From NCBI RefSeq assembly GCF_018977255.1, contig NW_024704742.1:25856001-25920000 (forward strand): a stretch of 64,000 bases of DNA. The letters are read 5' to 3'. Below the pieces are notes generated by a model that was not told where the DNA came from, ran no database searches, and saw only the letters and a program-made list of their open reading frames with translations. Positions 1,566 through 34,640 of the stretch are shown here, one piece after another (the first letter of the stretch is position 1; each line of letters starts with the position of its first letter). Origin of the DNA: Callorhinchus milii. Taxonomy: Eukaryota. Made by a program: the position numbers and the translations under genes.

Positions 1566-1775
1566 CTGCAGATAAGTTGCCAAAGTGTCACACTTGAGAA
1601 GGGTGAGGTTGGTCTTGTTAAGGTCCAGGGAGTTGGTAAGACACCAGGCGTCACTGTGTGGCTCCCTGGCTGCGGGGGGTTTGCTGGGGAGTCTGTGGCG
1701 GCTGCTGGTGGGGAAGGTTTGAGGCTCAGGTGTGGGACTGGTCCCCTGACTCCTGCTGTCGGGATCGCCCTCCAT
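1566..1775 (-). CDS. LRRC27: First coding exon (70 codons) of an LRRC27-like leucine-rich repeat gene; gene continues left of the window
   Basis: ATG at 1775, open to a phase-0 donor CAG|GTAAC at 1566/1565. The peptide MEGDPDS...NSLDLNKTNLTLLKCDTLATYLQ has LDLxxxxLxxLxxxxxxxxLQ ending at residue 70. This matches the spacing and position I recall for human LRRC27 (MEG...[22 protein letters not shown]). Identity outside the motif is low; ortholog versus paralog is unresolved. Confidence 0.65.
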
Positions 1776-1948
1776 TCACTCGGATCCCTGCGGCTGCATA
1801 CACTCTCCAACAACCACGAGCCTCGGCCGAAAGGTTGTTGCAAAACCGGAGACGTGCAAACGGTTCCTGGTTTCCTTCGGTTTGCGATCTTCGAGGGGAA
1901 CAAGACCGAGGGGAGCGGCTCCCATTCCCGGGCAGTCACCCCGGGCGG

Positions 1949-2606
1949 TCAGGGCAGGGCAGGGCAGGGCAGGGCTGGGCTGGGCTGGGCAGGTCAGGGC
2001 TGGGCAGGTCAGGTCAGGGCAGGGAAGGGAAGGGCTGGGCAGGGCAGGGCAGGGCAGGGCTGGGCAGGGCTGGGCTGGTCAGGGCAGGGCAGGTCAGGGC
2101 TGGGCAGGTCAGGGCAGGGCTGGGTAGGGCAGGGCAGGGCAGGGCTGGGCAGGTCAGGTCAGGTCAGGTCAGGTCAGGTCAGGGCAGGGCTGGGCAGGGC
2201 AGGGCTGGGCAGGTCAGGTCAGGTCATGGCTGGGGAGGGCTGGGCAGGGCAGGTCAGGGCAGGGCTGGGCAGGGCAGGGCAGGGCTGGGCTGGGCAGGGC
2301 AGGGCAGGTCAGGTCAGGGCTGGGCAGGGCAGGGCAGGGCTGGGCTGGGCTGGGCAGGTCAGGTCAGGTCAGGTCAGGGCAGGGCTGGGCAGGGCAGGGC
2401 TGGGCAGGTCAGGTCAGGTCATGGCTGGGGAGGGCTGGGCAGGGCAGGTCAGGGCAGGGCTGGGCAGGGCAGGGCTGGGCAGGGCTGGGCTGGGCAGGGC
2501 AGGGCAGGGCAGGTCAGGGCTGGGCAGGGCAGGGCAGGGCAGGTCAGGGCTGGGCAGGGCAGGGCAGGTCAGGGCTGGACAGGACAGGGCTGGGCAGGTC
2601 AGGGCT
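1949..2606 (+). repeat. G-rich pentamer array (GGGCA/GGGCT/GGTCA)n
   Basis: Directly visible. The variant AGGTCATGGCTGGGGAGGGC occurs at 2221 and 2416, a 195-bp higher-order duplication. Confidence 0.97.
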
Positions 2607-2800
2607 GCTCCGCGCAACGGGGACGCGTGAGAACTGAGACGATGAAGTCGGGATCTTCCCGACACCAAAGCTGCTCACTTCCTGCATCGGGACTTCAGCT
2701 GCAAAGCTGCGCCCCGGCCCCGGGGTAACCCTGGAGACCACTGTAGCGTGGGCTGCTGTCAGTGTGCGGGTCAATAGCAGCCCCCACCCCCGCACAGGCA
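2607..2800 (-). promoter_or_regulatory. CpG-rich candidate promoter of the LRRC27-like gene
   Basis: Unique CpG-rich segment between two arrays, upstream of the exon. Contains an X-box-like GTAACCCTGGAGAC (2725-2738), an ETS-like CACTTCCTG and a MYB-like CAACGG. Confidence 0.45.
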
Positions 2801-2802
2801 AC

Positions 2803-3090
2803 TCAGCCCGTCCGTGTCTGGCAGTCTGAGCCCGCCCGTGTCTGGCAGTCTGGCAGTCTGAGCCCGCCCGTGTCTGGCAGTCTGAGCCCGCCCGTGTCTG
2901 CCAGTCTGAGCCCGCCCGTGTCTGGCAGTCTGTCTGGCAGTCTGAGCCCGCCCGTGTCTGCCAGTCTGAGCCCGCCCGTGTCTGCCAGTCTGAGCCCGCC
3001 CGTGTCTGCCAGTCTGAGCCCGCCCGTGTCTGGCAGTCTGGCAGTCTGAGTCCGCCCGTGTCTGGCAGTCTGAGTCCGCCCGTGTCTGAG
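2803..3090 (+). repeat. 24-bp minisatellite GCAGTCTGAGCCCGCCCGTGTCTG, about 11 units
   Basis: Directly visible; produces the 8-aa periodicity (SLSPPVSG) in the ORF track. Confidence 0.95.
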
Positions 3091-3099
3091 CACAGTTTA

Positions 3100-6000
3100 C
3101 ATGTGAATGTGAGCCTGACTGAGCTGAGCACAGTCTGTCTGAGTCTGAACACATTCTAAGACTGAGCTGAGCAGTCGAGCACAGTCTGAGTTGAGAGCAG
3201 ATTGTGTTGAGCATTGGGTGCGTTGGTGTTGAGCACTAATGGTACTTGTGTTGAGCAGATTGTCTGTGTATGATGAGCACACGGTGTGTGTTTGTGTTCA
3301 ACAGTGTGTGTGTTTGTGCTAAACACAGTGTGTGTTTTTGTTGAGCACAGTGTGTGTGAGTGTGAGTGCTGAGCACAGTGTGTGTGAGTGTATTGAGCAC
3401 AGTGTGTGTGTGAGTGTTTTGAGCACAGTGTGTGAGTGTGTTGAGAACAGTGTGTGAGTGTGTTGAGAACAGTGTGTGAGTGTGTTGAGCACAGTGTGTG
3501 TGTGCTGAGCACAGTGTGAGTATGTGTGCTGAGCACAGTGTGTGTGTGCTGAGCACAGTGTGTGAGTGTGCTGAGCAGTATGTGAGTGTGTTGAGCACAG
3601 TGTGTGTGTGAGTGTATTGAGCATAGTGTGTGTGAGTGTATTGAGCACAGTGTGTGTGTGCTGAGCACAGTGTGTGTGTGAGTGTATTGAGCACAGTGTG
3701 TGAGTATGTTGAGTACAGTGTGTGTGTGAGTGTATTGAGCACAGTGTGTGAGTGTGTTGAGCACAGTGTGTGAGTATGTTGAGTACAGTGTGTGTGTGAG
3801 TGTATTGAGTACAGTGTGTGAGTGTGTTGAGCACAGTGTGTGAGTATGTTGAGCACAGTGTGTGAGTATGTTGAGCACAGTGTGTGAGTATGTTGAGCAC
3901 AGTGTGTGAGTGTGCTGAACACAGTGTGTGTGTGCTGAGCACAGTGTGTGTGTGCTGAGCACAGTGTGTGTGAGTGTGCTGAGCACAGTGTGTGTGTGCT
4001 GAGCACAGTGTGTGAGTGTGCTGAGCACAGTGTGTGTGTGAGTGTATTGAGCACGGTGTGTGAGTGTATTGAGCACAGTGTGTGTGTGTGCTGAGCACAG
4101 TGTGTGTGAGTGTATTGAGCACAGTGTGTGTGAGTGTGCTGAGCACAGTGTGTGTGAGTGTGTTGAGACAGTGTGTGTGAGTGTGTTGAGCACAGTGTGT
4201 GAGTGTGCTGAGCACAGTGTGTGTGAGTGTGCTGAGCACAGTGTGTGTGTGCTGAGCACAGTGTGTGAGTATTGAGCACAGTGTGTGTGTGTTGAGCACA
4301 GTTACAGTGTGTGTGTGCTGAGCACAGTGTGTGTGTGTGAGTGTATTGAGCACAGTGTGTGTGTGTGTGCTGAGCAGTGTGTGTGTGCTGAGCAGTGTGT
4401 GTGTGCTGAGCACAGTGTGTGTGTGAGTGTATTGAGCACAGTGTGTGTGTGCTGAACACAGTGTGTGAGTGTGTTGAGAACAGTGTGTGAGTATGTTGAG
4501 AACAGTGTGTGAGTGTGCTGAGCACAGTGTGTGAGTATGTTGAACACAGTGTGTGTGAGTGTGTTGAGCACAGTGTGTGTGTGCTGAACACAGTGTGTGA
4601 GTATGTTGAGCACAGTGTGTGAGTGTGTTGAGAACAGTGTGTGAGTATGTTGAGCACAGTGTGTGAGTGTGTTGAGCAGTGTGTGAGTGTGCTGAGCACA
4701 GTGTGAGTATGTGTGCTGAGCACAGTGTGTGTGTGCTGAGCACAGTGTGTGAGTGTGTTGAACACAGTGTATGTGAGTGTGCTGAGCAGTGTGTGTGAGT
4801 GTATTGAGCACAGTGTGTGAGTGTGCTGAGCACAGTGTGTGTGAGTGTATTGAGCACAGTGTGTGTGTGTGCTGAGCACAGTGTGTGTGTGAGTGTATTG
4901 AGCACAGTGTGTGAGTGTGTTGAGCACAGTGTGTGAGTGTGTTGAGCACAGTGTGTGTGTGAGTGTATTGAGCACAGTGTGTGAGTGTGTTGAGCACAGT
5001 GTGTGAGTGTGTTGAGCACAGTGTGTGAGTATGTTGAGTACAGTGTGTGTGTGAGTGTATTGAGCACAGTGTGTGAGTGTGTTGAGCACAGTGTGTGAGT
5101 ATGTTGAGCACAGTGTGTGAGTGTGCTGAACAGTGTGTGTGTGCTGAGCACAGTGTGTGTGTGCTGAGCACAGTGTGTGTGAGTGTGCTGAGCACAGTGT
5201 GTGTGAGTGTGCTGAGCACAGTGTGTGTGAGTGTGCTGAGCACAGTGTGTGTGAGTGTGCTGAGCACAGTGTGTGTGTGCTGAGCACAGTGTGTGAGTGT
5301 GCTGAGCACAGTGTGTGTGTGAGTGTATTGAGCACAGTGTGTGAGTGTATTGACCACAGTGTGTGAGTGTGCTGAGCACAGTGTGTGTGTGCTGAGCACA
5401 GTAAGGGGAGTGTGCTGAGCACAGTGTGTGTGTGAGTGTTTTGAGCACAGTGTGTGAGTGTGTTGAGCACAATGTGTGTGTGCTGAACACAGTGTGTGAG
5501 TATGTTGAGCAGTGTGTGAGTGTGTTGAGAACAGTGTGTGAGTATGTTGAGCACAGTGTGTGAGTGTGTTGAGCAGTGTGTGAGTGTGCTGAGCACAGTG
5601 TGAGTATGTGTGCTGAGCACAGTGTGTGTGTGCTGAGCACAGTGTGTGTGTGCTAAGCACAGTGTGAGTATGTGTGCTGAGCACAGTGTGTGTGTGCTGA
5701 GCACAGTGAGTGTGAGTGTGTGCTGAGCACAGTGTGAGTATGTGTGCTGAGCACAGTGTGAGTATGTGTGCTGAGCACAGTGAGTGTGAGTGTGTGCTGA
5801 GCACAGTGTGAGTATGTGTGCTGAGCACAGTGTGAGTATGTGTGCTGAGCACAGTGTGAGTGTGAGTGTGTGTGCTGAGCACAGTGTGAGTATGTGTGCT
5901 GAGCACAGTGTGAGTATGTGTGCTGAGCACAGTGTGAGTGTGTGTGCTGAGCACAGTGAGTGTGAGTGTGTGTGCTGAGCACAGTGTGAGTGTGAGTGCT

Positions 6001-7480
6001 GAGCACCGTGTGAGTATGTGTGCTGAGCACAGTGTGAGTCTGAGTATGTGTGCTGAGCACAGTGTGTGTGAGTGTGAGTGTGTGCTGAGCAGTGTGTGTG
6101 AGTGTGAGTGTGTGTGCTGAGCACAGTGTGAGTGTGTGTGCTGAGCAGTGTGAGTGTGAGTGCTGAGCACAGTGTGAGTGTGAGTGTGTATGCTGAGCAC
6201 AGTGTGTGTGAGTGTGAGTGTGTGCTGAGCAGAGTGTGAGTGTGTGTGCTGAGCACAGTGTGAGTGTGAGTATGTGCGCTGAGCACAGTGAGTGTGTGTG
6301 CTGAGCAGTGTGAGTGTGTGTGCTGAGCAGTGTGAGTGTGTGTGCTGAGCAGTGTGAGTGTGTGTGCTGAGCACAGTGTGTGTGAGTGTGTGCTGAGCAG
6401 AGTGTGAGTGTGTGTGCTGAGCACAGTGTGAGTGTGAGTATGTGCGCTGAGCACAGTGAGTGTGTGTGCTGAGCAGTGTGAGTGTGTGTGCTGAGCAGTG
6501 TGAGTGCTGAGCACAGTGTGAGTGTGTGTGCTGAGCAGTGTGTGAGTGTGAGTGTGTGTGCTGAGCACAGTGTGAGTGTGTGTGTGTTGAGCACAGTGTG
6601 AGTGTGTGTGTGTTGAGCACAGTGTGAGTGTCTGTGCTGAGCACAGTGTGAGTGTGTGTGCTGAGCACAGTGTGAGTGTGAGTTTGTGTGCTGAGCACAG
6701 TGTGAGTGTGTGTGTGTTGAGCACAGTGTGAGTGTGTGTGCTGAGCACAGTGTGAGTGTGTGTGCTGAGCACAGTGTGAGTGTGTGTGCTGAGCACAGTG
6801 TGAGTGTGAGTTTGTGTGCTGAGCACAGTGTGAGTATGTGTGCTGAGCACAGTGTGAGTATGAGTGCTGAGCAGTGTGAGTCTGAGTGCTGAGCACAGTG
6901 TGTGAGTGTGAGTGCTGAGCACAGTGTGAGTATGTGTGCTGAGCACAGTGTGTGTGAGTGCTGCGCACAGTGTGTGAGTGTGAGTGCTGAGCACAGTGTG
7001 TGTGAGTGTGAATGCTGAGCACAGTGTGTGAGTGTGAGTGCTGAGCACAGTGTGTGAGTGTGAGTGCTGAGCACAGTGTGTGTGTGAGTGCTGAGCACAG
7101 TGTGAGTGTGAGTGTTGAGCACAGTGTGTGAGTGTGAGTGCTGAGCACAGTGTGTGTGAGTGTGAGTGCTGAGCACAGTGTGTGTGAGTGTGAGTGCTGA
7201 GCACAGTGTGAGTATGTGTGCTGAGCACAGTGTGTGTGAGTGCTGCGCACAGTGTGTGAGTGTGAGTGCTGAGCAGTGTGTGTGAGTGCTGAGCACAGTG
7301 TGTGTGAGTGTGAGTGCTGAGCACAGTGTGTGTGAGTGTGAGTGCTGAGCACAGTGTGTGTGAGTGTGAGTGCAGAGCAGTGTGTGTGAGTGCTGAGCAC
7401 AGTGTGTGTGAGTGTGAGTGCTGAGCACAGTGTGTGTGAGTGTGAGTGCTGAGCAGTATGTGTGAGTGTGAGTGTGAGCT
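3100..7480 (+). repeat. About 4.3-kb TG-rich minisatellite, core TGTG(C/T)TGAGCACAGTGTG, unit about 20-28 bp
   Basis: Directly visible; source of the spurious HTVLSTH/CAQHTH ORFs. Confidence 0.98.
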
Positions 7481-8587
7481 CAGCTGTAACTGTCACATTA
7501 TTGTGATATCACAATTGCACGTTGTGAAGGAAGAGGGAAATAACGAGGATCCCCTTTTGCTTTGTGTGCATTACACTCTGCACTCGTCCCACCGCCACTG
7601 GCAACTTCATCCTCCATCCCGAGGGGCGTTTTATTCAACAAGTGCTGATAGAGATGGTCCTTTTAAGGGGGGAAAGGAACCAAACAAAATATAGTACGGT
7701 ACTACAAAACTATTTTATTGCAGCGTGATACACAGCGAAAGAAGACGTTTTGGGGAACATGAAAGTATTATTTCATCCAACATGCTGGCTCCTTTTTTTT
7801 GCTTGCAGTATTTTAAGCATTTATATTGTCAGCACAGCATACAGTGGTATCGTACATTGCTCCCCTCATTTTAAATGATCTCCAAATAATTCACAATATC
7901 AATTTGATTTGGCCATATTACACCTGGCAAGGTTCAGTTTCACACGAAAATTAGTGCAACAGCTCGCATTCGCATAACCCCCTTCTCACGTCGAAACGTC
8001 TCACAGTGCTTCACAGTAACTACTTTAATTAATAATGAATAAAAGTCATTACTGTGAAACGCAGTCACTATGTGCAGAGAAACGGGGCAGCTGGTGATGC
8101 CCACAAACCATCATGAGGTCGACTGACCAATTATTCTGGAGGTTTGTCAGCCAAGATACCTGGAGCAACTCCCCTTCTCTTTTTGCATAAATCTTTAGAT
8201 TTCATTTGAAACATGGTGGATCTATTCTATCCTGGTTTTAATTTATCTCAATGACTTTATCCATGGTGGGGGGGGGGTAAGGCAGCCTTCCCCCAGTTGT
8301 ATACTGAGCTCACAGTCCAGTTAACTTCTTCTGTGACCTGCAATTCCAACGTGAGACTTGAACCTCGCTCACAACTCACTACTTTCTATTCTTGGGGACT
8401 ACAGTGGAGAATACGGTATACTATGAATGGGAACACACTCGCACTTGTGTTGGAGCGTTTTGGGAGCATGTGGGCGTTTTAACGACAGAAAAGACAAACA
8501 CAGGATCACTGCAACAGGAATGTTCGCGTTCACAACGAAACCTTACAAATCAACTCAACAGTGGATCTTTGCTCTATGAATGCACTG

Positions 8588-8593
8588 TTTATT
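8588..8593 (-). other. Candidate polyadenylation signal (AATAAA) of CYTL1
   Basis: AATAAA on the minus strand about 430 nt after the CYTL1 stop; other candidates exist further downstream. Confidence 0.35.
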
Positions 8594-9020
8594 GGTGTAT
8601 TCGATTAAGTTGGGGATTGTGGGTTTCTGAAAACCCCAGGGGTGGGTGGGGTGGGGTGGGGGAGTGGGGGGGGGGACTGCTTAGAAGTAACGAAAAGCAA
8701 CATTCCTAAACTTTCCTGCAAGAGTTCCCACTCTGTAAAGCAGATTACAGCCAAACATCATAACACCACAAAGATGGGAACGCAAACGCTTATTTTGCCC
8801 ACAAATAAGCCACGATCTCAGCTGTTCTCACCTCCTGAAAGCAACAAAGCGGAGACCAATAGTTTACATGAAGTCTGCAAACCAGCAAAGTATTAATCGA
8901 GAGAGGAGCTCGGGCTACATTGTTATTTTTTTTGGAAAAAAAAACCTGAACGTTACAGAAACGATTCTTCCTCCTGTTCGGAAATGAAAATGCTGTGTGT
9001 GCACCGGTCACACCGGGGTT

Positions 9021-9104
9021 TCAGTTGAGCAATTCTTCCTGTGGATCTTGTGTGGGTGGTGGGTTTTCCAGGGCGGCGCAGTCATCCGTGAAAAACACCA
9101 GGTC
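9021..9104 (-). CDS. CYTL1: CYTL1 exon 4 (DLVFFTDDCAALENPPPTQDPQEELLN*)
   Basis: Acceptor ttgacag|GAC, stop TGA at 9023-9021. Matches the CYTL1 C-terminal motif DLVFLxDDCxALE. Confidence 0.95.
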   Translation of the reverse strand, partial: DLVFFTDDCAALENPPPTQDPQEELLN

Positions 9105-9299: not shown

Positions 9300-9300
9300 T

Positions 9301-9332
<32 letters not shown>

Positions 9333-9448: not shown

Positions 9449-9595
9449 CCTGTAGCAGACTTGGTTGATGATCTTGTACAAGCGCCTGATGCGCACTTTC
9501 AGCCAAGTGATTCTGCTGAGCTTCTGGCACCGGGGGCTGCTGAGGTTGTCCAGGAAATAGAGGTGATCACGGAGTTTGATCATCACACACGAGTT
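9449..9595 (-). CDS. CYTL1: CYTL1 exon 3 (NSCVMIKLRDHLYFLDNLSSPRCQKLSRITWLKVRIRRLYKIINQVCYR)
   Basis: Acceptor cttttcag|AAC, donor AGG|gtagag, 147 bp, phase 0/0. NxCVxxKLRD, SPxC and LYxIxNxxCxR motifs of CYTL1. Confidence 0.95.
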
Positions 9596-9664
9596 CTGAA
9601 AAGTCGCATGTTGTTTTGCGGTCGGTCTGAGGCAGTCATGGGTGTTGGAAACTAATAATCATTG

Positions 9665-10512
9665 CACACACACCAACACACACACACGCACCAACACACA
9701 CGCACCAACACACACACACCAACACACACACACACACCAACACACGCACCAACACACACACACGCACCAACACACACACACGCACCAACACACACACACC
9801 AACACACACACCAACACATACACACCAACACACACACACCAACACACCAACACACACACCAACACACACACCAACACACACACACACGCACCAACACACA
9901 CACACCAACACACACACACACACCAACACACCAACACACGCACCAACACACACACACACCAACACACACACACCAACACACACACCAACACACACACACA
10001 CCAACACAGACCAACACACCAACACACACACCAACACACGCACCAACACACACACACACCAACACACACACACCAACACACACACCAACACACACACACA
10101 CCAACACAGACCAACACACCAACACACACACCAACACACGCACCAACACACACGCACCAACACACACACACACACACCAACACACACACACACCAACACA
10201 CACCAACACACACACACCAACACACACCAACACACCAACACACACACCAACACACGCACCAACACACACACACCAACACACGCACCAACACACACACACA
10301 CACACCAACACACACACACACCAACACACACCAACACACACACACCAACACACACACACACACCAACACACACACACCAACACACGCACCAACACACACA
10401 CACACACACCAACACACACACACACCAACACACACCAACACACACACACCAACACACACACACACACCAACACACACACACCAACACACACACACCAACA
10501 CACACACACACA
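9665..10512 (+). repeat. CA-rich compound array ((CA)nCCAA)m filling most of CYTL1 intron 2
   Basis: Directly visible. Confidence 0.98.
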
Positions 10513-10537
10513 CTAATGGTCACAGCCACTTACTTAC

Positions 10538-10582
10538 ATGTACGTCAATGTAGAAGTTTGGGAGTATGGCAACGCACGGTTT
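10538..10582 (-). CDS. CYTL1: CYTL1 exon 2 (KPCVAILPNFYIDVH)
   Basis: Acceptor ctcttcacag|AAA, donor CAT|gtaagt, 45 bp. Matches PCVxxLPxxYxDxH. Confidence 0.96.
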
Positions 10583-10677: not shown

Positions 10678-10821
10678 TGTGATGGCAAATGTCTGCAGCC
10701 TTTTCAAAGACTTCATAATCCGTTTACTTAAATTCAACACTGACGAATAGCAAGTTGGAGGAGTGCAGTCGACAATCACAAGGAACGTGGACAGGAAAAC
10801 CAGTTGTTTGATCAGATCCAT
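10678..10821 (-). CDS. CYTL1: CYTL1 (cytokine-like 1) exon 1: signal peptide and TPPTCYS
   Basis: ATG at 10821, hydrophobic leader, diagnostic TPPTCYS, donor ACA|gtaagt. The four exons join into 139 aa with six Cys in the mature chain. Confidence 0.96.
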
Positions 10822-18995: not shown

Positions 18996-19925
18996 CCTGT
19001 TCCTGTAGGTCCTGCTGGTCCTGGTCCTAATGAACCTGCTGGTCCTCATGGTGCTCAAACTGCTTTTCCTGCTGGTCCTGCTGGTCCTGTTTGTCTTGTT
19101 CCTGTTGGTCATGTTGGTTTTGCTGGTCCTGCTGCTGATCCTGCTGGTCCTTGTTCTGGTCCTGCTTGTCTTGATGCTGCTGTTCTTGCTGTTCCTGCTG
19201 GTCTTGCTGGCTTTGGTCCTGCTGGTCCTTCTGGTCCTTGTCCTCCTGGTCCTGCTGGTCATGATCATGCTGGTCCTGATGGTCCTGTTCCTGCTGGTCC
19301 TGTTGGTCCTGATGGCCCTGGTGTTCCTGCTGGTCCTAGTGGTGCTGGAATGGCTAGTCCTGCTGTTCTTGGTCCTGCTAGTCCTGCTGATCCTACTGGT
19401 CCTGGTCCTGCTGTTCCTGATCCTTCTTGTCCTGCTGGTCTTGCTGTGTTTTTATCCTGCTGGTTCTTCTAGTCTTGGTCCTGCTGGTCCTTCTGGTTCT
19501 TGTCCTACTGGTTCTGCTGGTCCTGTTCATACTGGTACTGCTGTTCCTCCTGGTCCTGGTCCTGCTTGTCCTGGTGGTGCTGGTCCTGCTGGTGCTGGCT
19601 GTTTCTGGTCATACTGGTCCTGCTGGTTCTGGTTCAATTTGTTCTGCTGGTCCTGTTGTTCCTGCCATTCCTGCTGGTCCTAGTCTGGCTGGTCTTGAAG
19701 TTCCTACTGTTCCTCGTCCTGCTGGTCCTGCTGGTCCTGGTTCTGGTGGTCCTGCTGGCCATAGTCCTGCTGTTCCTGCTGGTCCTAGTCTGGCTGGCCT
19801 TGAAGTTCCTACTGGCCCTGGTCCTGCTGGTCCTGATCTTACTGTTGCTGCTGGTTCTCATGGTGCTGGAACTGTTGCTCCTGCTGGTCTTGCTAGTATA
19901 GGTCCTGCTGGTCCTTTTGCTAATT

Positions 19926-19957
<32 letters not shown>

Positions 19958-20419
19958 GTGATGCTAGTCCTGCTGGTCATGTTGGTCCTGCTGGTCCTGC
20001 TGGTCCTATTTGTCTTATTCCTGCTGGTTATGTTGGTATTGCTGGTCCTGCTAGTCATTGTCCTGCTGGTCCTGTTTGTCTTATTCCTGCTGGTCATGTT
20101 GGTATTGCTGGTCTTGGTCCTGCTGTTGCTGGTCCTGCTAGTCCTGTTATAGCTGTTCCTGTTGGTCCTGGTCCTGCTGGTTTTGGTCCTGCTGATCCTG
20201 CTGATGCAGGTCCTGGTCCTGCTGGTCCTGCTGGTCCTTGTCCTGCAGGTCCTGCTGGTCCTTTTGGTCCTTGTCCTGCTGGTTCTGGTCCTGATGGACC
20301 TACTGGTCCTGCTGGCCCTGTTCCTGCTGGTCCTGTTGGTCCTGTTGTTTCTGCTGGTCCTGTTTTTCCTGCTTTAGTCTGCTGGTCCATGTCCTTCTGG
20401 TCCTAGTCCGACTGGTCTT

Positions 20420-20497
20420 GCCATGACCTTATTGAATGGCGGGGCAGGCTCGAGGGGATGAATGGTCTACTCTTGCTCTTAATTCCTATGTTCTTGT
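20420..20497 (+). mobile_element. CR1-type 3' terminal fragment inside the array
   Basis: ATTGAATGGCGGGGCAGGCTCGAGGGGATGAATGGTCTACTCTTGCTCTTAATTCCTATGTT resembles chondrichthyan CR1 3' ends as I recall them. Confidence 0.75.
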
Positions 20498-21332
20498 GGT
20501 CCTGCTTGTCTTGCTGTTCCTATTGGTCTTGGTGGTCCTGGTCCTGTTGGTCCTGCTGATCCTGGGGGTGCTGGTCCTGCTGGTCCTGATCCTGATGGTC
20601 ATGCTGATCCTGGTCCTGCTGCTCCTGCTGGTCCTGGTCCTGCTGGTTCTTTTGGTCCTTGTCCTGCTGATCCTGTTCGTGCTGGTACTGCTGTTCAAGC
20701 TGGTCCTGGTCCTTCTTGTCCTGCTGGTCCTGCTGGTCCTGCTGGTCCAGGTCCTGCTGGTCCTGCTGGTCCTGGTGGTGCTGGTCCTGCTGGTCCTGTT
20801 GGTACTTGTCCTGCTGGTCTTGATGGTCCTGTTCGTGCTGGCACTGTTGGTCCTACTGGTCCTGGTCCTGCTTGTCCGGGCTATCCTGCTGGTTTTGTTG
20901 TTCCTGGTCATGTTGGTCCTGCAGCTACTGGTATTTTTGGTCCTGCTGGTCCTGTTCCTGCTGGTCCTGTTCCTGCTGGTTCTGGGGTTGCTGGTCCTGC
21001 TGTCCTGCTTGTTCTGGTGGTGCTGGAAGTGCTGCTCCTGCTGTTCTTGGTCCTGTTGGTCCTGCTGGTCTGGCTGTTCTTGGTCCTTCCAGTCCTGGTG
21101 AACCTACTGGTCCCGGTCCTGCTGGTCCTCCTGATCCTGTTCCTGCTGCTCCTGCTGTTCTTGCTGTTCCTGTTGGTCCTGGTTCTGCTGGTCCTGATGA
21201 TCCTGCTGTTCCTGATCCTGCTGGTCCTGGTGGTCCTGGTCCTGCTTGTCCTGTTGGTCCTTGTCCAGCTGGTCCTGCTGTTCCTGGTCCTGCTGGTCCC
21301 ACAGATTCTGGTATTTTTGGTCCTGCAGTTCT

Positions 21333-21395
21333 TGCGCCTTGGGACGTCCTCCCAATGTGAAAGGCACTCTATAAATGGAATCTTGTTGTTGTTGT
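21333..21395 (+). mobile_element. L2 3' tail fragment inside the array
   Basis: GCGCCTTGGGACGTCCTCCCAATGTGAAAGGCACT.TATAAATG..(TTG)n, near-identical to the L2 tail at 46120-46180. Confidence 0.85.
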
Positions 21396-23237
21396 CCTGA
21401 TCCTGATGGACCTGCTGGTCCTGTTTGTCTTGTTCCTGCTAGTCATGTTGGTATTGCTGGTTCTACTGGTTCTGCTGGTCCTAATCCTGCTGTTCCTGCT
21501 GGTCCTGCTGGTGCTGGTCCTAGTCCTTCTGGTCCTGCTGGTCCTGTTAGGGTTGTTTCTGCTGGTCCTGATCCGGCTGTTCCTGGTCCTGCTGCGGCTG
21601 CTAGTCCTGGTACTGCTGTTTTTTGGTCCGGCTGATCCTGCTGGTGCTGGTCCTTGTCCTGCTGCTCCTACTGGTTCTGTTCCTGCTGGTCCTGGTCCTT
21701 CTCATCCTGCTGGTCCTGCTGGTCCTCTTGGTGCTGGAACTGCTGCTCCTGCTGGTCCTGGTCCTGCTGGTCCTCCTGATCCTGTTCCTGCTGGTCCTTT
21801 TTCTGCTTGTCCGGTTGGTCCTGCTGGTGCTGGTCCTGCTGGTCCTGATGGTCCTGTTTATGCTGGTCTTGCTGGTCCTCGTCATATTGGTCCTCAGGTT
21901 CTGGTATTTTTGGTCCTGCAGGTCCTGGTCATGCTGGACTTGCTGGTCCTGCTGTAACTGGTCCTGCTGGTTCTGCTGGTCCTGATATTCATGCTGGTCC
22001 TTGTCCTTCTTGTCCTGCTAGTCCTGCTGGTCTTGGTCCTGCTGATCCTGCTGGTCCTGCTGGTCCTGGTCTTGCTGGTCCTGTTGGTCCTGCTCGTCCT
22101 GGTTGTCCTGCTGGTCATGTTTCTGCTGGTCCTGTTCATGCTGATCCTGCTGGTCCTGCTGGTCCTTTTGGTCATGCTAGTCCTGGTCCTGCTGCTCCTG
22201 GTCCTCCTTGTCCTGCTGATCCTAGTCTTGCTGGTCCTGCCAGTCTTCCTGGTCCTGGTCCTGCTGGTCCAACTGGTCCTGCTGATCCTGGTCCTGCTGG
22301 TCCTGCATCATCATCATCATCATCATTTCTGGTCCTGTTCTTGCTGGTCCTGCTGGTCCTGCTGGTCATTGTCCTGCAGGTCCTGTTGGTCCTATTCATG
22401 CTGGTCCTGCTGGTTATTGTCCTGCAGCTCCTGCTGGACCTGCTGTCTTCGTGGTGCTGAAACTGCTGCTCCTGCTAGTCCTGATCCCGCTGGTCCTGTT
22501 CCTGCTGGTCCTGTTCCTGCTGGTCCTGTTGTCGGTCCTGCTAGTCCTGGTCCTGCTGGTCCTGTTGATCCTGCTGGTCCTACTAGTCCTGCTGTTCCTG
22601 CTCGTCCTCATGGTGCTGGAACTGCTGCTCCTGCTGGTCCTGGTCTGGCTGGTCCTGCTGGTCCTGCTGATCCTGCTGGTCTTGGTCCTGCTTGTCCTGC
22701 TGGTCTTGTCCTGCTGGTCCTGCTGGTCCTGCTGGACTTGGACCTGTTGTTCCTGCTGGTTCTACTGGTCCTCATGGTGCTGGAACTGCTGCTCCTGCTG
22801 GTCCTGCTAGACCTGTTCCTGCTGGTTCTGCTGGTCCTGTTATTCATGCTGGTCCTTGTCCTTCTTGCCCTTCTAGTCCTGGTCCTGCTGGTCCTGCTGG
22901 TCCTGGATATAATCTTGTTGTTGTTGTCCTGGTCCTCTTGGACCTACTGTTCCTGGTACTGCTTGTCCTGTTGATCCTGGTCCTGCTTGTCCTGCTGGTC
23001 TTATTCCTACTGGTCCAGCTGGTCCTGCTGGAACTGCTGGTCCTAGTCCTGGTTCTCCTTGTCCTGCTGATCTTGGTCCTGCAGGTCCTACTATTCCTGC
23101 TGGTCTTTCTCCTGCTTGTCCAACTGATCCTGATGGTCCTGCTTGTCCCACTGGTCCTGGTTCTGCTGGTCCACTTCCTGCTGGTCCTGGTCCTGTTGAT
23201 CATGCAGATCCTGTGAGTCCTGCTTGTCCTGGTCCTG

Positions 23238-26409: not shown

Positions 26410-27375
26410 CAAATCAAATCAAGTCAAGTTGCCCGCCCATGCTGCCCTTCCAGCTCCTGCCAATGAGCCACACTGGTTGTGCTGTCATAAGCAGTGGCCT
26501 GGAATACTGCAGACCCACCTGGCTCAGGAACTGGACTACCAAGACTGCCACAGAGGGCTGGTTCAATTGCGACATTCTATTGCCAAACATGTCACCTTGG
26601 AGCCAATTCAACTACAAGTAGACCCCACTTACTTGGGCACACGTCCCTTCCCATTAAACGATGGTTCCACCAATTGGAGGTGCAGAGTTGAAGCAGCAGC
26701 TGCTTGCCTCTCTACAGGCCAAGCAAGGCAGATTCCAGCCACTGGACGTACAAACTTGTACTCACGAACTCGGACTCCGGTTCTCGCCTTCCAGTAGCTG
26801 TCACCCCAAGTTTCAGAGTTCCCTCATCAGCTATCTGGTTAAGCTAGCTGCTTAATCCAGGTCCTCGTACGAAGGTCCTTGGTAAATAGATGTGCCCGCT
26901 GTGAAGATGACTCAGCCTCAAGGGGGCTTACTGAGAGGTAGCCCTCCCTCCCTGTAGCCGCTTCTTGTGTTTGCCACAAATCCACCTAACTGCTTGATCC
27001 CGGACTTGCTTGATCCTGCAGATCAGTCGGTGCATCCCTTGGAGCTCAGATCCATAAAGGAAGACTTTTTTAACACAGGTCTTGTTTGCCACAAGCTTGA
27101 CCTGCATTGGGACCTTGCTGTCCTTGAAGAGGGATGAGCATGACCAGAGTGCCCTTCGCCCCTTCTTAGCGTGGTCCTTCAGGACAGTGTCCAGGCTGAA
27201 GTTGGCATCCATTACGACCCCAAGGTACCAATAAGAGTCAACGATTGGGACTGATGCCCCTTGTATCTTGCAATTAATTCCCTCAATGTCTTCTCTTGAG
27301 CTGTCCAGAACCATGATTCCGTACTTGGGGGCACCAACTACCATGTCCCACTGGTTGGTCCAGGGTTCAAGATGG
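26410..27375 (-). mobile_element. Non-LTR retrotransposon fragment (RT C-terminus to zinc-knuckle region), not CR1 or L2
   Basis: WxxxWDMxxxxxKxGIM, VPIVDSYWYLGV and LYGSEL thumb motifs, then decayed RTWIKQL and a knuckle-like GICLA...LLLQ segment. Confidence 0.8.
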
Positions 27376-28787
27376 CGAGTGAAATATGTAAAACACACAA
27401 TGTTGTGCAGAAGTTGCAGCCTTTAGAAACAAGTGTCAGTTTGCTCAGTTGGTAGCTCTCCTCTAAGTCAGAAGCTGGCTGGCTGGCTCATACTTCAGTA
27501 TTCTGTCAAAAAGTGAATGTCTCCTACTGAAGCCACTGTAAATTTAGACACTCTACAGGGATGTTTTTTAATATAAAAAAAGCCTTTCCTTTGTCAGTTG
27601 CACTCTCAGAGTGCTATTTAACAATGAAAAACCAAATTGTTATGGAACATTTAACCTCCCAATAAAATAGCTGCAATTTATTGAATTTTTTTAAAACCAA
27701 ATCAACAAGTTGATGGTTATCTATGTCATTCTAGAACTTGCCTAAGTTACCTTAACGGTAGTTAATAATGAATCCATCCACTTTTAAGTGGTCCAAAACA
27801 CACATCCCATGTGAAAGGCACTATATAAATGCAAGTTGTTGTTGAAAATCCTCAGGACATTGCTCATTCCAAAAGAACTAAACATAAATACAAAGCAGCC
27901 TCGGCCAATGACAAATTCAGTCTAAGGCAAACTTCTTCAAATTTCTCTTTACCAATTACTATTGGCCATGCCAAACAAGGAAAACAGACAATCTTTTTTC
28001 TGGCAAGAAAATGGAGGCATAAAGCTTGAATTTCTCAGCGTGTACCTTAATCAGATATGCACATACAGACGGTACTAAAATAATACATTATACATTTCGC
28101 TTTGCAAATTTTCAGACTCCAACGCTGCTATTGCTCAGGATTATACAAGGCATGTGATGAAGGTCTCAAATGACTCCTTCGATATTATCCCTTTTACTAG
28201 CTTGCTCTAAGTGCTTACCCTGATGACAGAATTGTAATTTCACCATATGATAAGACTGTTAGTATGAAACATATGTCCCAAAACTAACCTACACACTTAT
28301 CAACATGTTATAAGTATGAATGATTGACATCACAATGCCCTATTAGTATTATTTTACAAAACTCAACAAAGCTGCTGGATGCAAATTTGAACCTGCAATT
28401 TGCCACACGAGTCTCTAGGCTATGAAATTGTCACCAGCTGCCAAATGGATGCCATGAACCTCTGATATAGAGTTCAGCAACCCTGTTTCACTCTTCTGCA
28501 CTGCCTCGTACCTGGGCCAAGAGCAGAATCATAGAGACTAGGGAGGAGATTGCCTGTTTGCTGCTGAGTCAGAGAATGTAGTGCAGTTCACATCAAACCA
28601 AAACACAGAGGAAATGAAATAAGTGTTGAAATATGTAACACATACGTTTATCAAAGGTACAGTATTCATAACTCAAATGTTCTGTCCAAAAAAGTTTTAA
28701 TTTATGTTTTCTTGCATTTTCAGGTCTTCTCAATTCACACAATAAGTAAAAATAATTCATACAATAATTCATAACTCCTTTCACAGC

Positions 28788-28960
28788 AACAACTTGCACT
28801 TATATAGCAAACTTCACGCAGGGTAGCATCTCGGAGTGTTTCACGTTGGGAGGACGTCTCAAGGTGCTGTGGAGTGACTGTATTTTGTGGGCAAACTCCA
28901 CAGCCAATTTGTAGTAGCAATGTCCCGCAAACAGCGACCAATTTTATTTGGGGGTTTTCG
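28788..28960 (-). mobile_element. SINE 3' fragment
   Basis: Reverse complement of the common 3' module. Confidence 0.7.
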
Positions 28961-31662
28961 AAGGTTCTGGGGGATAAAACGCAATAATATAAGCGTTGTG
29001 ATTGAACCTGCAGTTTTGTTTGATTCACCAATCAAGTGGAGTTGGAGACTATACCGTTTGTGCAGTGGCTTGTGGTGTGGTGTGGTGTGTCTGGGATAGG
29101 CTGGCGGCTGCTGTAATGTGCAATATCGAGTGGAGCCGCTTGAGGGGGGTCGACACCATGTCCATCTGCAGCCTCCACAGACTTGCTGGGCAAGGGCACT
29201 GACAGCAGCCTCCAGGCTACTCACTCAGCACTGAGAGCTGTCCTTGGTGGAGCTCACAGAGAAACCAGTGAAGTTAAACAGAGGGAAGGAGGGCAGGGAA
29301 GAGAAATAATGCATGAACACAAAGCACAGGAAAGAAAGCTGTGAGTCCTGGTTGAAAGCAGGTAGAGCAAAAGGATGAAATGATGTGCATTTCAAAAATG
29401 CACACCTGCCTGCCTATTAGAAAAAAAAGTGGAATAAACTGCTTCCCCCTTCCTTGAAAAAAGCCTCTTCTTTTTTTTACACAAACATCTCTTTACAAAT
29501 TCTTAACCCATTCCAAGTGTTACTTTCCCACATTTCGGTCTACTTTGCCATTTTTTGTTACTCCTAAGAATCAGTTCTCCTTTACCTGCGTTTGCACTTT
29601 TGTCTCTTCATATGGATCAGTTATAGTCGGTTTATGAGTCCAATGCGACAGTGCAACACTTTTGAAATGATGGTTAAAAAGCTAACAGGTTTAACTAACA
29701 GTGAATGTTGCACTGCAATTTTGACCCCAGTGAATAGCTTCCATGCCTACAGCTCACATAAATACAAAGTATAGCAAATGGTTTGACATGAAATAATGTT
29801 CCCCCAGGAATGTATCATAGCACAGGGCACAGAATAAAAGAAGTCTACTTCAAGATTAAACGTGTCTCATCCACAGAATAAACAGCTCCACCTTGCTAAA
29901 ATAAAACCTCTTCCTTTTTTTTACAAACATCCCTTTACAAACTCTTAATCCTAATCTACTGCCCAAGCCCCAAATCCCCCCTGCCCCCATCTTGTAGAAT
30001 AAACTTGCTGTCTTGGGAAATAAAAATAATTCACAGCAACTCACTCAGCAGTGAGATGTTTCAACGGCATGATAAGGTGCTATAGCAAATGTAAGGAATA
30101 AAAAGGGTAGAACAAATGCGCTGTGCATGGAGCATGAATTCAAGAATGCCCAGGGAGACATTAGTGCAAAATATACCAGGGCAAAGCATTTTTAAACTGA
30201 AGTGGAATGTACAGGGATGGATTTATTACAGCAGTAGTACAATTTGGTGCTGCCACCTTGCAGCACTTTAAAATAGAAGCCAGTGTCAAACAAATGCTTG
30301 TGCTGTAACTGGGTGTTATTGATCATCATCATTGATCATTCCTAATATTCTCCAATACTGACTGCTGTGGCCTTTGGCAAAGACAAAAGCCCAAGGTTTA
30401 AGCTAGAAATCTAAAACAACATGGAACCGAGTTTCAACAACAGCAGATTGCATTTATACAGAACCTTTCATGTAGGGGGAGGATGTTCCAAGGTACTGAA
30501 CAGTCAAGGGTTTGCACCTGAGCTGGGGTTGGAGTCAAAAGTTAGTACTATGATTTACTCCTTGGAGTAGAACTCATTAACAAGTCTGTCATTTGATGAG
30601 CTTGAAAATATCCAGTTGTAATGAATATAGGTGAACTTTCGTATGTATTGAGAAAACCAAAGGACTCAAAGTTTTCAGGAAGGAGTCCTGTTAGTACTTG
30701 CTGCCTGTCGGTGACTTCCTCCCTCACTCTCTCTCTCGACTTCTTTTTTTCTTTTTCATCCTGCCTTTGGGTGTAGCAGTCGTTCTTCCTATGACTTGAC
30801 TGATCTTCTGTTTTTGATTTTTTTTAATCAAACTTGTTGAGCCTCCATTCTCCCCAATGAACTTTATTCCAGTTTCATGAAACTCTCCAGTGTCGACAAA
30901 GGATCCCTAAATCCTCCATTGGGCTGCCATCTGGTGGACAGCATCGACGTGCCCACCAGCCCATCAAACACTTTTATAAATCTAACAGGGCAAGAAAACA
31001 CACTTGTATTTCTTTTAAAAAGGAACACATGTTGTATAATTAACATGCAAATAGGGAATACTAACAGAAAATAAATCCGCTGTGATGTAGCGGACATGAT
31101 TTATTTGCACCTGTACGTTTATTGTGGTTTATAGTACGTGCCAATGAATTATTTAATTTCCATAATCCATCTGGCACTTGCACATAGCCTCCATTCAGCA
31201 ATCGAAAGTGCTGCTCGTTACTAGGACCCAGATATTTACTTAACTTATTAAGGTGGAAAATATCTTATGATGGCGCTACCTGAAATAGCAATAGGAAAAG
31301 AGTCCAGTGGTCGGGTATTACATATGTTTCATGTACCTTTTTAAAATAATTCAGGAGATGAGATTCACATGGTAAATTGCTACCCTCTCTAGTGTATTTC
31401 AATGTTCCACAATGCTTTCACATAAGTCGTATCAGTTGGGACCATACATTTAATATGACTTATGCAAAGTATGAGTTAAGTCAAACTTGCACAGAATATA
31501 AATCCTTGAAAGGGACTTGGGCAGAAGACCTAGTTAGGCGATTGTATGATTTATACAGATCAGACTTATGCGAGGTTTGCTATAATTTAATGGATGTGAT
31601 TAAAGATAGATTGGGTGGGCGGGGGGGGGGCAGTGGTGGATATCTGAAACCACAGCGGATAA

Positions 31663-31977
31663 AGTCCTGTAGCTCAGTGGTTAGAGCACTCCCTTTGCAA
31701 GTGAGAGACCTAAGTTCAATTCCAGGCAGAGGGCGAAACCTTGGGCAAGTTTCCTTACTCCACACAGAGCCTAATAATAATCCCTCCAAAACCAAAAACA
31801 ATAATAAATTGGCCATTTTCAATCTACGACTGTTTGTGGGACATTGCTGTGCGCAATTGGCTGCCGCGTTCGCCCACAAATATACAGTCAATTCACTTTA
31901 CAGTGTGTTCTGTGAAGCGCTTTGGGACATCCTCCCGACGTGAAAAACGCTATATCAAATGCAAGGATTATTATTAT
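31663..31977 (+). mobile_element. tRNA-Ala-derived SINE, short young form
   Basis: Near-identical to 13945-14272 in the opposite orientation. Confidence 0.93.
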
Positions 31978-32589
31978 TTTTATAAATACAGATAGAGGAG
32001 GAGAAAAAAATTGGCAAAGATTTCGGGTGTGACCCTTCAAGAGGACTGACTGTATGGCAGAAATGTTAACCTACCTAACCTTTCCCAGGTTATTGATTTA
32101 CCTGTTGTTCATTAAGGGAAGCGTTTAAACTATTGCAGTGTATAGGCACTGTTATATTATAGGGGTGTGTTTGCCGGACCCAGTGGTGTAACCATCCAAT
32201 TGAGTTCCCTATTAAATGTGTTCCCTATTTAGTGGTGTTTTTTTCTCAGGTGCTGCACGACTGCAGTTACAATCAATAACCACGAGTACTCGAACACAGT
32301 GCTTTATTTCAAATCAGATCTTTTATTTATGTATGCATTTATTTATTCATTTACACACACATACATACATCTCACACACGAGCTTCAACAATATCGCTAA
32401 CAATGTGATACAGTGAGTTGGCGATGGCGAGGAATGGTGACAGACAGAAACGTGGAGTTCTGCACTGAAAAATAAGCAAATATACATATATATATATATA
32501 TATAGGTTGAAACAGATGTGAAACAGGTCCCCAAAACCAACAGGTTGAATTGCAAAGCACCGTTTGGCCCGAAAATAACACGCGAAACG

Positions 32590-32862
32590 TAGGGTGGTGG
32601 GTGGGTGGGGGGTGAGAGGGTAGGGTGGGGGGTGAGAGGGTAGGGTGGTGGGTGGGTGGTGGGGTGAGAGGGTAGGGTGGTGAGTGGGTGGGGGGTGAGA
32701 GGGTAGGGTGGTGGGTGGGTGGTGGGGTGAGAGGGTAGGGTGGTGGGTGGGTGGGGGGTGGGTGGTGGGGTGAGAGGGTAGGGTGGTGGGTGGGTGGTGG
32801 GGTGAGAGGGTAGGGTGGTGGGTGGTGGGGTGAGAGGGTAGGGTGGTGGGTGGGTGGGGGGG
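32590..32862 (+). repeat. G-rich minisatellite with core GGGGTGAGAGGGTAGGGTGG
   Basis: Directly visible; dense G runs compatible with G-quadruplexes. Confidence 0.95.
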
Positions 32863-32989
32863 GTGTGATCTGTGTTGTTGTGTGAGGTGCACAGCTCACT
32901 GGCTCCTGTCACTGATCTGCAGGAGATCTGACTGTTCTGGAGGCTCCATCGTCCCTTTCCCTGGCAATGGGGAGGTGAGGGCTGTGAGC

Positions 32990-33942
32990 GGGGGGGGGGG
33001 GGGGGGGTGTGTGTGGGATGTGTGTGTGTGTGTGGGGTGTGTGGGGGGGGTGGGGGTGTGTGTGGGGGGGGGGGGGGTGTGTGTGGTGTGTGGTGTATGT
33101 GTGTGTGCGTGTGGTGTACTGTGTGTGGTGTGTGTGTGTGGGGGGTGGGGGTGGGGTGTGGTGTGTGTGTGGGGGGGTGGTGTTTGTGTGTGTGGGGGGG
33201 TGGGGTGTGTGTGTGGGGGGGGTGTGGTGGGTGTGTGTGTGTGGGGGTGTGTGGTGTATGTGTGGTGTATGTGTGTGGTGTGTGCGTGTGGGGGGGGTGG
33301 GGTGTGTGGTGTGTGTGTGGGGGGGGTGGTGTGTGTGTGTGGGGGGTGTGGTGTGTGTGTGTGTAGTGTATGTGTGTGTGTGTGTGGGGGGGGGGTGGTG
33401 TGTGTGTGTGTGGGGGGTGGTGTGTGTGTGTGTGTGGTGTATGTGTATGTGTGTGTGTGTGTGGTGTATGTGTGGTGTGTGTGTGTATGTGTATGTGTGT
33501 GTGTGTGTGGTGTATGTGTGTGTGGTTTGTGTGTGTGTGTGGTGTGTGTGGTGGGTGGGTGTGTGTGTGGTGTGTGTGTGTGTGTGTGGTGTATGTGTGT
33601 GTGTGGTGTATGTGTGTGTGTGTGTGGTGTGTGTGGTGGTGTGTGTGTGTGGTGTATGTGTGTGTGGTGTGTGTGGTGGGTGTGTGTGTGTGGGGGGGGG
33701 TGTGTGTGTGGTGTATGTGTGTGTATGTGTGGTGTGTGTGTGTGTGGTGTGTGTGGTGTATGTGTGTGTATGTGTGGTGTGTGTGGTGTATGTGTGGTGT
33801 GTGTGGTGTATGTGTGTGTGGTGTATGTGTGTATGTGTGGTGTGTGTGGTGTATGTGTGGTGTGTGTGGTGTATGTGTGTGTGGTGTATGTGTGTATGTG
33901 TGGTGTGTGTGGTGTATGTGTGTGTGGGGTGTGTGGGGGGTG
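32990..33942 (+). repeat. GT/G-rich low-complexity array upstream of STK32B exon 1
   Basis: Directly visible. Confidence 0.97.
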
Positions 33943-33999
33943 TTGTCAGCCTCCAGGAAGCAGAAACAATATTAAAAATCATAATTACAAATAATTAGC

Positions 34000-34640
34000 A
34001 AAGCCGACGGGAGAGAGTGAGTGAGTGAGTGAGAGAGTGAGTGAGAGAGCGCAGTGTGTGTGTCAGTGTCAGTGTCGGGTCGGAGACAGACAGACAGAGA
34101 CAGAGACCGAGTGAGAGGCGGAGAATGCATCGCTCTGCTCCGCTCCCGACACCGGGAATCCGCTGCGGAGCCGCAGTTTGCGGGAAAATCGGCGGCGTCT
34201 GATAAAGCCGCGGGGACCGGAGGGACCGGGGAGGGAGGGAGCGGCGCAAACCAGAGCTCGGGCTGTGCAAAGCCATGGGGAGCGGGGAGGAGAGTGCGGG
34301 GTCTGCAGCCGGAGCCCCCCACCCGCACCCGCACCCGCACCCGCAGCCACAGCCACAGCCCCGCACACTCTCCCTGGGACACTGGTGGTAACATCCCGGG
34401 ACCCCCCCCCCGTGGGATGGTGCGCGCGTTTTCTTTTGCGGGACTCACAGCTCTTCCCCCCGACCGCACCGCACCCGCACCGCACACCGCACCGCACACA
34501 CCCCCCCCTCCCGGTGTGTGGGGGTGGGGGGGGATATGCGGAGAGAGCCCCCCCCCCCGCACACCATGGGCTCCAATCACTCCCACAAGACGCCGGTGTT
34601 TGACGAGAACGCAGACGGTAAGATCCCGCACCTCTCGGGT
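34000..34640 (+). promoter_or_regulatory. CpG island: STK32B promoter and 5' UTR
   Basis: High GC and CpG density against CpG-poor flanks; contains the start codon. Confidence 0.85.
34566..34617 (+). CDS. STK32B: STK32B (YANK2 serine/threonine kinase) coding exon 1, MGSNHSHKTPVFDENAD
   Basis: Kozak CACCATGG, 52 bp, phase-1 donor G|gtaaga. Matches recalled human STK32B MGGNHSHKPPVFDENEE; NHSHK favours B over A or C, and the divergent CYTL1 neighbour matches human synteny. Exon 2 (VNFDHFQILRAIGKGSFGK) not found in the window. Confidence 0.92.

Follow-up and report, generated by a model that had tools for sequence, protein, structure and literature searches.

An LRRC27-family gene beside STK32B in Callorhinchus milii, a probable genome-duplication paralog retained in cartilaginous fishes

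How did a gene of the LRRC27 family come to lie beside STK32B in the cartilaginous fish Callorhinchus milii, when the LRRC27 of bony vertebrates lies beside STK32C? The question is raised by a 64,000-nucleotide stretch of RefSeq assembly GCF_018977255.1 (contig NW_024704742.1, here C1), referred to below as the window (G000:C1:25856001-25920000 of the 991 Mb assembly), in which we recognized the first exon of a gene that we call LRRC27L. According to the original prediction, a 70-codon exon starting with ATG and ending in the start of a leucine-rich repeat (LRR) points away from exon 1 of an STK32 gene, with CYTL1 between the two; all of these elements were found at the predicted places. The prediction went on to propose an LRRC27-like gene kept from whole-genome duplication on the STK32B block, either as a second family member or by reciprocal loss. 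LRRC27L is indeed a second LRRC27-family gene, and we consider it likely to be a genome-duplication paralog on the STK32B block that was kept by cartilaginous fishes and lost in bony vertebrates.

LRRC27L is predicted to be an intact eight-exon gene

In the adjoining 100 kb on the left, LRR exons were located on the minus strand by a motif scan combined with a listing of open reading frames (ORFs). The resulting LRRC27L model comprises 8 exons (C1:25857775-25828626), with a frame that is open over 360 codons and AG/GT at 7/7 introns.

Window 1566..1775, minus strand: LRRC27L exon 1, 70 codons from ATG to a phase-0 donor, its end being the start of the first leucine-rich repeat
C1:25850603-25850473, 25849701-25849643 and 25847923-25847780, minus strand: LRRC27L exons 2-4, left of the window
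C1:25845675-25845531, 25844344-25844198, 25830867-25830753 and 25828757-25828626, minus strand: LRRC27L exons 5-8, left of the window

Exon 1, read from window position 1775 to 1566, encodes MEGDPDSRSQ...AWCLTNSLDLNKTNLTLLKCDTLATYLQ, has an in-frame TGA right before its ATG, and ends in ...LDLNKTNLTLLKCDTLATYLQ|gtaaca. It joins the LRR exon 7 kb downstream in phase 0. When used as the sole query, exon 1, which is short and fast-evolving, had no match at an expectation value (E) <= 0.01 among longer proteins. Its core does align with the N-termini of shark and ray orthologs in tblastn searches, over residues 1-59 of P0010 (38% identity, E 8e-4) and over cores of 22-23 residues of P0007, P0004 and P0006 (55-61%). 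This alignment and the phase-0 join to an LRR exon set the predicted exon 1 apart from a chance ORF.

With four shark and ray proteins as tblastn queries, matches spanned the whole gene, from the N-terminal exon to the C-terminal exon ...LKLDKQAPMEYRLCAFTGDSSPSLPHNVTF. Exon 2 begins with HLYLEGN, and exon 1 contributes the first repeat followed by YLQ, which is aligned to CIQ or CIE of the sharks. A start of exon 2 at FLQHLY was ruled out, as the acceptor stands directly before HLYLEGN in the DNA. To judge from these predictions, LRRC27L is shown to be a real, intact gene that is conserved across cartilaginous fishes.

It should be noted that the stretch across the border of exon 1 and intron 1 (window 1410-1646, the 3' 81 bases of the exon plus the start of the intron) has copies elsewhere in the genome. 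One place on C2 matches it at 71-85% (C2:70900352-70900535, L004 1501-1684) and has an in-frame stop, and the intronic part has matches of 88-96% on C4 (L003 1466-1545). The same repeats, resembling short interspersed nuclear elements (SINEs), flank the stretch on C1, C2 and C4, and it looks as if a small fragment had been copied along with the repeats. We considered exon 1 as a transposon-derived artefact and rejected this, given that sharks and rays conserve its coding part in their orthologs and that the C2 copy carries the in-frame stop.

LRRC27L is a divergent member of the LRRC27 family

The predicted LRR exons gave best matches to LRRC27-family proteins, in line with the family originally named for this gene. 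With exon 2 alone as the query, seven proteins of sharks and rays were matched at 74-77% identity, which go by the names 'uncharacterized protein' or 'Leucine-rich repeat-containing...'. A profile built from six of these found 131 proteins at E <= 1e-5, the best 120 of which were listed. The 11 best of the 120 are all cartilaginous-fish proteins (386-843 bits); they are followed by a low-quality toadfish model (278 bits) and then, at <=190 bits, by LRRC27 or 'LRRC27-like' proteins of geckos, lungfish, teleosts, mammals and invertebrates. Below the orthologs, LRRC27 is the only named family among the matches listed.

The LRRC27L orthologs are the predicted shark and ray proteins P0002-P0008 and P0010-P0013, from Heterodontus francisci, Stegostoma tigrinum, Hypanus sabinus and Scyliorhinus torazame among others, with 37-49% identity over the whole length. 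Full-length forms come, by prediction, from 10 species of sharks and rays. All are automatic predictions, named 'uncharacterized protein LOC...' or 'leucine-rich repeat-containing protein 27-like'. The C. milii model is shorter than these orthologs (360 residues versus 373-441).

Alignment shows that LRRC27L has the LRR block of the LRRC27 family, with about five repeats and a CP(L/I)xFPP cap; in bony-vertebrate LRRC27 this block reads LYLEGN..WLDLR.N..LLLE.NP..LKALNLR.CP.EFPP and is likewise combined with a C-terminal EYRFxAFTG motif. LRRC27L and the LRRC27 of tetrapods, teleosts, Ciona, crinoid and oyster have this LRR block in common, as well as EYR(L/F)xAFTGD at the C-terminus. The longer form of the motif, (L/P)EYR(F/L)xAFTG(D/E) after an E..I..H.Q...RR helix, is present as well, reading PMEYRLCAFTGD in LRRC27L, and the C-terminal family motif was also seen in Ciona, crinoid, geckos, lungfish and teleosts. 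Two central motifs, EQRRKDKxxLxxWR and (A/T)P(F/Y)ATD, are common to ordinary LRRC27 and the invertebrate homologs, but in LRRC27L and the orthologs of sharks and rays their place is taken by a QRKKKQ-type sequence or by none. Unlike ordinary LRRC27, LRRC27L lacks DKxxLxxWR and APFATD and has a Cys-rich VWCxxxSLDLxxxxLxCLKCD start. Since these central family motifs are not found, LRRC27L and its orthologs are shown, as far as predicted proteins allow, to be divergent rather than typical members of the family.

The LRRC27L protein would be disordered at its N-terminus, followed by about five repeats that end in a CPLxFPP cap, a charged and helical central part and a C-terminal EYRLCAFTGD motif. 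We infer that it may act as an intracellular leucine-rich-repeat adaptor. Its apparent fast evolution and the two missing central motifs suggest a changed or narrowed set of partners. Pfam LRR_8 was detected on the ortholog P0007. The solved structure nearest by sequence is that of the C-terminal LRRs of SHOC2, profile residues 64-166 corresponding to SHOC2 396-498 (E 3.6e-34); no LRRC27 chain was present among the 60 best of 256 solved-structure matches. SHOC2 and LRRC27L are alike in repeat type only, both having intracellular LRRs with the same kind of C-terminal cap, whereas SHOC2 is a known RAS-MAPK scaffold with about 20 repeats, compared with about five and a long tail devoid of LRRs in LRRC27L.

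An ordinary LRRC27 lies beside STK32C in the same genome

A search of the C. milii genome with a shark ortholog yielded 34 matches at E <= 0.01, among which only two loci reached at least 54% identity, namely the C1 gene and C7:21586522-21582805 (57-60%). None of the 34 matches was on C13. The C7 locus was read as follows.

C7:21587604-21582765, minus strand: ordinary LRRC27, exons of 132, 131, 59 and 162 nucleotides, from genome search and splice reading

The C1 and C7 genes agree in the intron positions of the LRR region: in both, a phase-0 end of exon 1 directly precedes (H/N)LYLEGN, exon 2 has 131 nucleotides and exon 3 has 59, with the same phases. The C7 copy has an identity of 67% with P0057, an 'LRRC27-like' protein of a sawfish, and of 62% with lungfish LRRC27. 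It lies on the minus strand, divergent from the exons of a kinase gene on the plus strand (C7:21651346-21670115), and the two are at most 64 kb apart. On C7, an ordinary LRRC27 and STK32C thus stand head-to-head, an arrangement also present on human 10q26.3.

The kinase of the window is STK32B, in a block matching human 4p16.2

The identity of the kinases was examined with a degenerate pattern of the STK32 C-terminal motif; the reversed pattern, used as a control, had no hits. The pattern occurs at exactly three loci in the genome, C1:26032654 (+), C7:21670002 (+) and C13:12053450 (-). We matched the C1 exon peptide against a representative protein library and named ten longer matches by cluster look-up, which placed it at 91% identity to two bird STK32B proteins, 77% to bison STK32C and 78% to a salmonid STK32A-like protein. 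With bird STK32B as the query, C1 was highest in 5/5 exons for which all three loci were listed (84, 76, 72, 76 and 85%); the values were 56 (over a longer stretch), 65, 48, 60 and 78% for C7, and 82, 58, 55, 55 and 80% for C13. With bison STK32C, C7 was highest in 3/4 comparable exons (86, 94 and 79% versus 80, 62 and 69% for C1), and the fourth was a near tie (74 versus 75). By these identities, the window kinase is STK32B, and the C7 kinase is STK32C. The window kinase had first been called B-type on the residues NHSHK, an argument that presumes the human sequence; when its exons are compared one by one with named STK32A, STK32B and STK32C proteins, the same assignment results, B and not C.

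Window 34566..34617, plus strand: coding part of STK32B exon 1 (MGSNHSHKTPVFDENAD, then G|gtaag), read from the sequence
C1:25951265 to 26032767, plus strand: later STK32B exons, right of the window, with named STK32B as the closest match
C1:25762081-25763378, plus strand: MSX-type homeobox gene of 2 exons, 65 kb past the 3' end of LRRC27L (Pfam Homeodomain, E 1e-22)

The gene order on C1 is MSX - LRRC27L - CYTL1 - STK32B. The outer genes, as represented by LRRC27L exon 1 (-) and STK32B exon 1 (+), point apart with CYTL1 (-) in between, and the MSX gene is the only clear gene in the 72 kb left of LRRC27L. Elsewhere in the genome, its homeodomain exon has exactly two close paralogs, located at C13:8254970 (84%) and C7:9794966 (81%), all others being at <=59%. 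The three MSX and the three STK32 paralogs thus share the contigs C1, C7 and C13.

For human 4p16.2, the gene order in the deletion table of PMC4804413 is STX18, MSX1, CYTL1, STK32B, C4orf6, EVC2, EVC, CRMP1, JAKMIP1, ..., WFS1, PPP2R2C; CYTL1 adjoins STK32B, and no LRRC27 stands between MSX1 and STK32B. For human 10q26.3, the deletion table of PMC4411697 runs PPP2R2D, BNIP3, JAKMIP3, DPYSL4, STK32C, LRRC27, PWWP2B, so that STK32C adjoins LRRC27. Both adjacencies are those that the original prediction had assumed. A trout study describes ppp2r2d-jakmip3-dpysl4-lrrc27 as a group conserved in all non-teleost species it analysed, with the region on two zebrafish chromosomes (passages of PMC6142374). 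In either block, STK32 separates the LRRC27-type gene from the CRMP/DPYSL and JAKMIP genes. The comparison shows the C1 block to be the counterpart of human 4p16.2 plus one gene, LRRC27L. LRRC27L and the bony-vertebrate LRRC27 (human 10q26.3) are each divergently placed next to an STK32 gene; LRRC27L differs in lying beside STK32B instead of STK32C, with CYTL1 intervening, and in forming a separate, long-stemmed clade.

LRRC27L and its orthologs form a clade of their own

For the careful tree (38 rows, 407 columns, LG+C20+F+G4), 38 proteins were picked by hand from the 120 of the database listing, one per species and without isoforms or unnamed assembly-derived rows, and both C. milii models were added. 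The two rows of shrew and meerkat, with long branches and odd composition, were left out. The following groups were obtained in this tree.

Invertebrates, outside the vertebrates: support 100/99
LRRC27L with 8 shark and ray orthologs: support 100/100, stem length 1.17 changes per column
C7 copy with the sawfish LRRC27-like protein: support 96/92
Teleosts: support 99/99
Amniotes: support 95/90

The vertebrate LRRC27 family as a whole is a clade (100/99), and the C. milii LRRC27L branches outside the group of sharks plus rays (100/99). In a FastTree analysis of 122 rows, the LRRC27L clade consists of 11 cartilaginous-fish proteins and the C. milii gene, with a support of 100 and 0/110 other rows inside. 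No bony vertebrate falls inside the LRRC27L clade in these trees, and LRRC27L is not nested among the ordinary LRRC27 orthologs; the distinct clade that had been looked for was therefore found.

Origin of LRRC27L

Because an ordinary LRRC27 is present on C7, LRRC27L is a second family member and not a product of reciprocal loss; only the first of these two options, both offered by the original prediction, holds. The other LRRC27 beside STK32C, whose presence had been a question, is the C7 gene. The proposed origin by whole-genome duplication gains support from synteny, while the tree leaves the duplication undated. Before the vertebrate genome duplications, one LRRC27 would have divergently adjoined one STK32; the duplications would then have copied the pair, and the cartilaginous fishes would have retained the LRRC27 copy on the STK32B block, the bony vertebrates, humans included, having lost it. 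We favor this origin because LRRC27L and the ordinary LRRC27 occupy mirrored positions beside STK32B and STK32C in blocks that also carry MSX paralogs, and because the chance landing of a later copy in that slot and orientation would be very unlikely. The two LRRC27 copies lie in paralogous blocks together with other old paralogs (STK32, MSX) in matching arrangement, which is one mark of genome-duplication paralogs, or ohnologs. The loss of LRRC27L in bony vertebrates, which we infer from the proteins found, would be comparable to the 'ohnologs gone missing' of an ALDH1A study (PMC2682703), in which one duplicate was likewise kept in some vertebrate lineages, lost in others and recognized by conserved synteny.

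Several points weigh against this origin. The tree does not date the duplication, its timing being neither supported nor contradicted, and the ohnolog reading therefore rests on synteny. The vertebrate backbone of the careful tree is a polytomy, with the lungfish oddly at its base, and the tree set holds no cyclostome, gar, bichir, coelacanth, amphibian or bird LRRC27. The STK32C-linked copy of cartilaginous fishes is represented by two sequences only, one of them a partial 161-residue model. Gene order beside STK32B was read in C. milii alone among cartilaginous fishes, and the absence of LRRC27L from bony vertebrates is an absence from protein databases. The assignment of the C13 kinase to STK32A is weak, a salmon STK32A query being highest there in 2/5 exons, and comes partly by elimination. 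Finally, LRRC27L is known here from genomic sequence alone, its transcript being predicted, and the junction of exons 4 and 5 is the least certain of the model, as the frame is preserved by an acceptor with a poor pyrimidine tract and a better-looking acceptor demands a weak donor.

The explanation that competes most directly is a duplication within the cartilaginous fishes, after their split from bony vertebrates, with the copy ending up next to STK32B either by chance or through ectopic exchange between related blocks; we regard it as rather unlikely. It agrees with the restriction of LRRC27L to cartilaginous fishes in the profile search and the FastTree analysis, and with the finding that the LRR region of LRRC27L is closest to the C7 copy of its own genome (64% over 108 residues, versus 51-56% over 123-152 residues for bony-vertebrate LRRC27; BLASTP). 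Moreover, a clade that unites the two cartilaginous-fish copies is not rejected by the approximately unbiased (AU) test (delta lnL 2.47, p-AU 0.294), which also counts among the points against a genome-duplication origin. The grouping of the C7-type copies with all bony-vertebrate LRRC27, leaving LRRC27L outside, is not rejected either and is only marginally better (delta lnL 0.17, p-AU 0.489). In the best tree, however, the two cartilaginous-fish copies are not joined. The long stem of the LRRC27L clade agrees with an old split, as does the loss of the central motifs, although fast evolution could also yield both. The slot of LRRC27L parallels that of LRRC27 beside STK32C: it is divergent, on the side away from the CRMP/DPYSL-JAKMIP genes, and in a block with old MSX and STK32 paralogs. 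By our estimate, a random landing within ~100 kb of this place in a 991 Mb genome would have a chance of ~1-in-10,000.

Two further explanations appear much less probable. LRRC27L could be a decaying or never-expressed copy whose open frame is a leftover, and its being known from genomic sequence, the weak acceptor tract or weak donor required at the exon 4/5 junction and the absence of two central family motifs all point that way. We nevertheless judge this very unlikely, as an open frame extends through 8 exons, the splice sites of 7/7 introns are canonical, full-length orthologs are predicted in 10 species of sharks and rays, and the C-terminal motif has been retained across the split of C. 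milii from the shark-ray clade. Still harder to maintain is the view that LRRC27L is the ordinary LRRC27 translocated beside STK32B, by reciprocal loss or simple translocation: family likeness, and nothing further, speaks for it, while C7 of the same genome holds the ordinary LRRC27 head-to-head with STK32C, and LRRC27L and the C7 copy belong to separate supported clades.

Going beyond a genome-duplication origin, we lean, by a small measure, towards LRRC27L being ancestral to gnathostomes and surviving in cartilaginous fishes only, a fast-evolved gene that dropped two central motifs kept by species from echinoderms to mammals, gained a Cys-rich N-terminal repeat and became a neofunctionalised LRR adaptor without a bony-vertebrate counterpart. 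A literature search found no report of LRRC27 as a lineage-specifically lost ohnolog, although ohnolog tables in supplements could list the family; the one paper that came up for LRRC27 in connection with ohnologs deals with bnip3 synteny. The search likewise found no paper on the shark and ray LRRC27L proteins and, among the papers listed, no functional study of LRRC27.

If our reading is correct, LRRC27L would be a synteny-anchored addition to the duplicated genes kept by cartilaginous fishes and lost by bony vertebrates, the MSX/STK32/DPYSL/JAKMIP/PPP2R2 paralogous blocks would be extended by one family, and the divergent LRRC27-STK32 arrangement would predate the duplications. The divergent second copy also offers a natural contrast for finding which parts of the LRRC27 protein matter. 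The major questions of the field are left unchanged by this finding.

CYTL1 and the repeats of the locus

CYTL1, between LRRC27L and STK32B, is a complete gene of four exons and about 139 codons on the minus strand.

Window 10678..10821, minus strand: CYTL1 exon 1, signal peptide and the CTPPTCYS start of the mature protein (Pfam PF15153, E 7.3e-11)
Window 10538..10582, minus strand: CYTL1 exon 2 (KPCVAILPNFYIDVH; Pfam PF15153, E 0.0079, alone below the curated cut-off), its phase fitting exons 1 and 3
Window 9449..9595, minus strand: CYTL1 exon 3 (Pfam PF15153, E 2.1e-18)
Window 9021..9104, minus strand: CYTL1 exon 4 (DLVFFTDDCAALENP... then stop), from an ORF

Two of the exon ORFs score 42.5 and 67 bits against PF15153 (cut-off 27), and a third scores 16.5 bits, under the cut-off. 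Exon 4 presumably resembles the C-terminus of human CYTL1. Intron 2 of CYTL1 is filled by a CA-rich array (window 9665-10513), similar to the long impure (GT)n and (CA)n arrays that bracket STK32B exon 1 in a G+C-rich stretch (window 33007-33935 and 34882-35966).

Upstream of LRRC27L exon 1, most of the spacing to CYTL1 is occupied by three arrays: (CAGGG)n with 131 copies (window 1950-2605), a 108-bp repeat (window 2848-3088) and a 4.2 kb array of a 22-24 bp unit (TGTGCTGAGCACAGTGTGTGAG; window 3247-7472). Between CYTL1 and STK32B, window 19067-23231 is a 4.1 kb array of a 9-bp, triplet-periodic unit (TCCTGCTGG, ~61% matches), whose long open frames, PAGP... or LLVL..., have the appearance of a minisatellite and not of a gene. 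The MSX-LRRC27L interval contains ORFs resembling the reverse transcriptase of long interspersed nuclear elements (C1:25797106-25798529 and 25807837-25809621), and SINE-like copies are numerous both there and in the window (e.g., 709-896 and 1223-1382).

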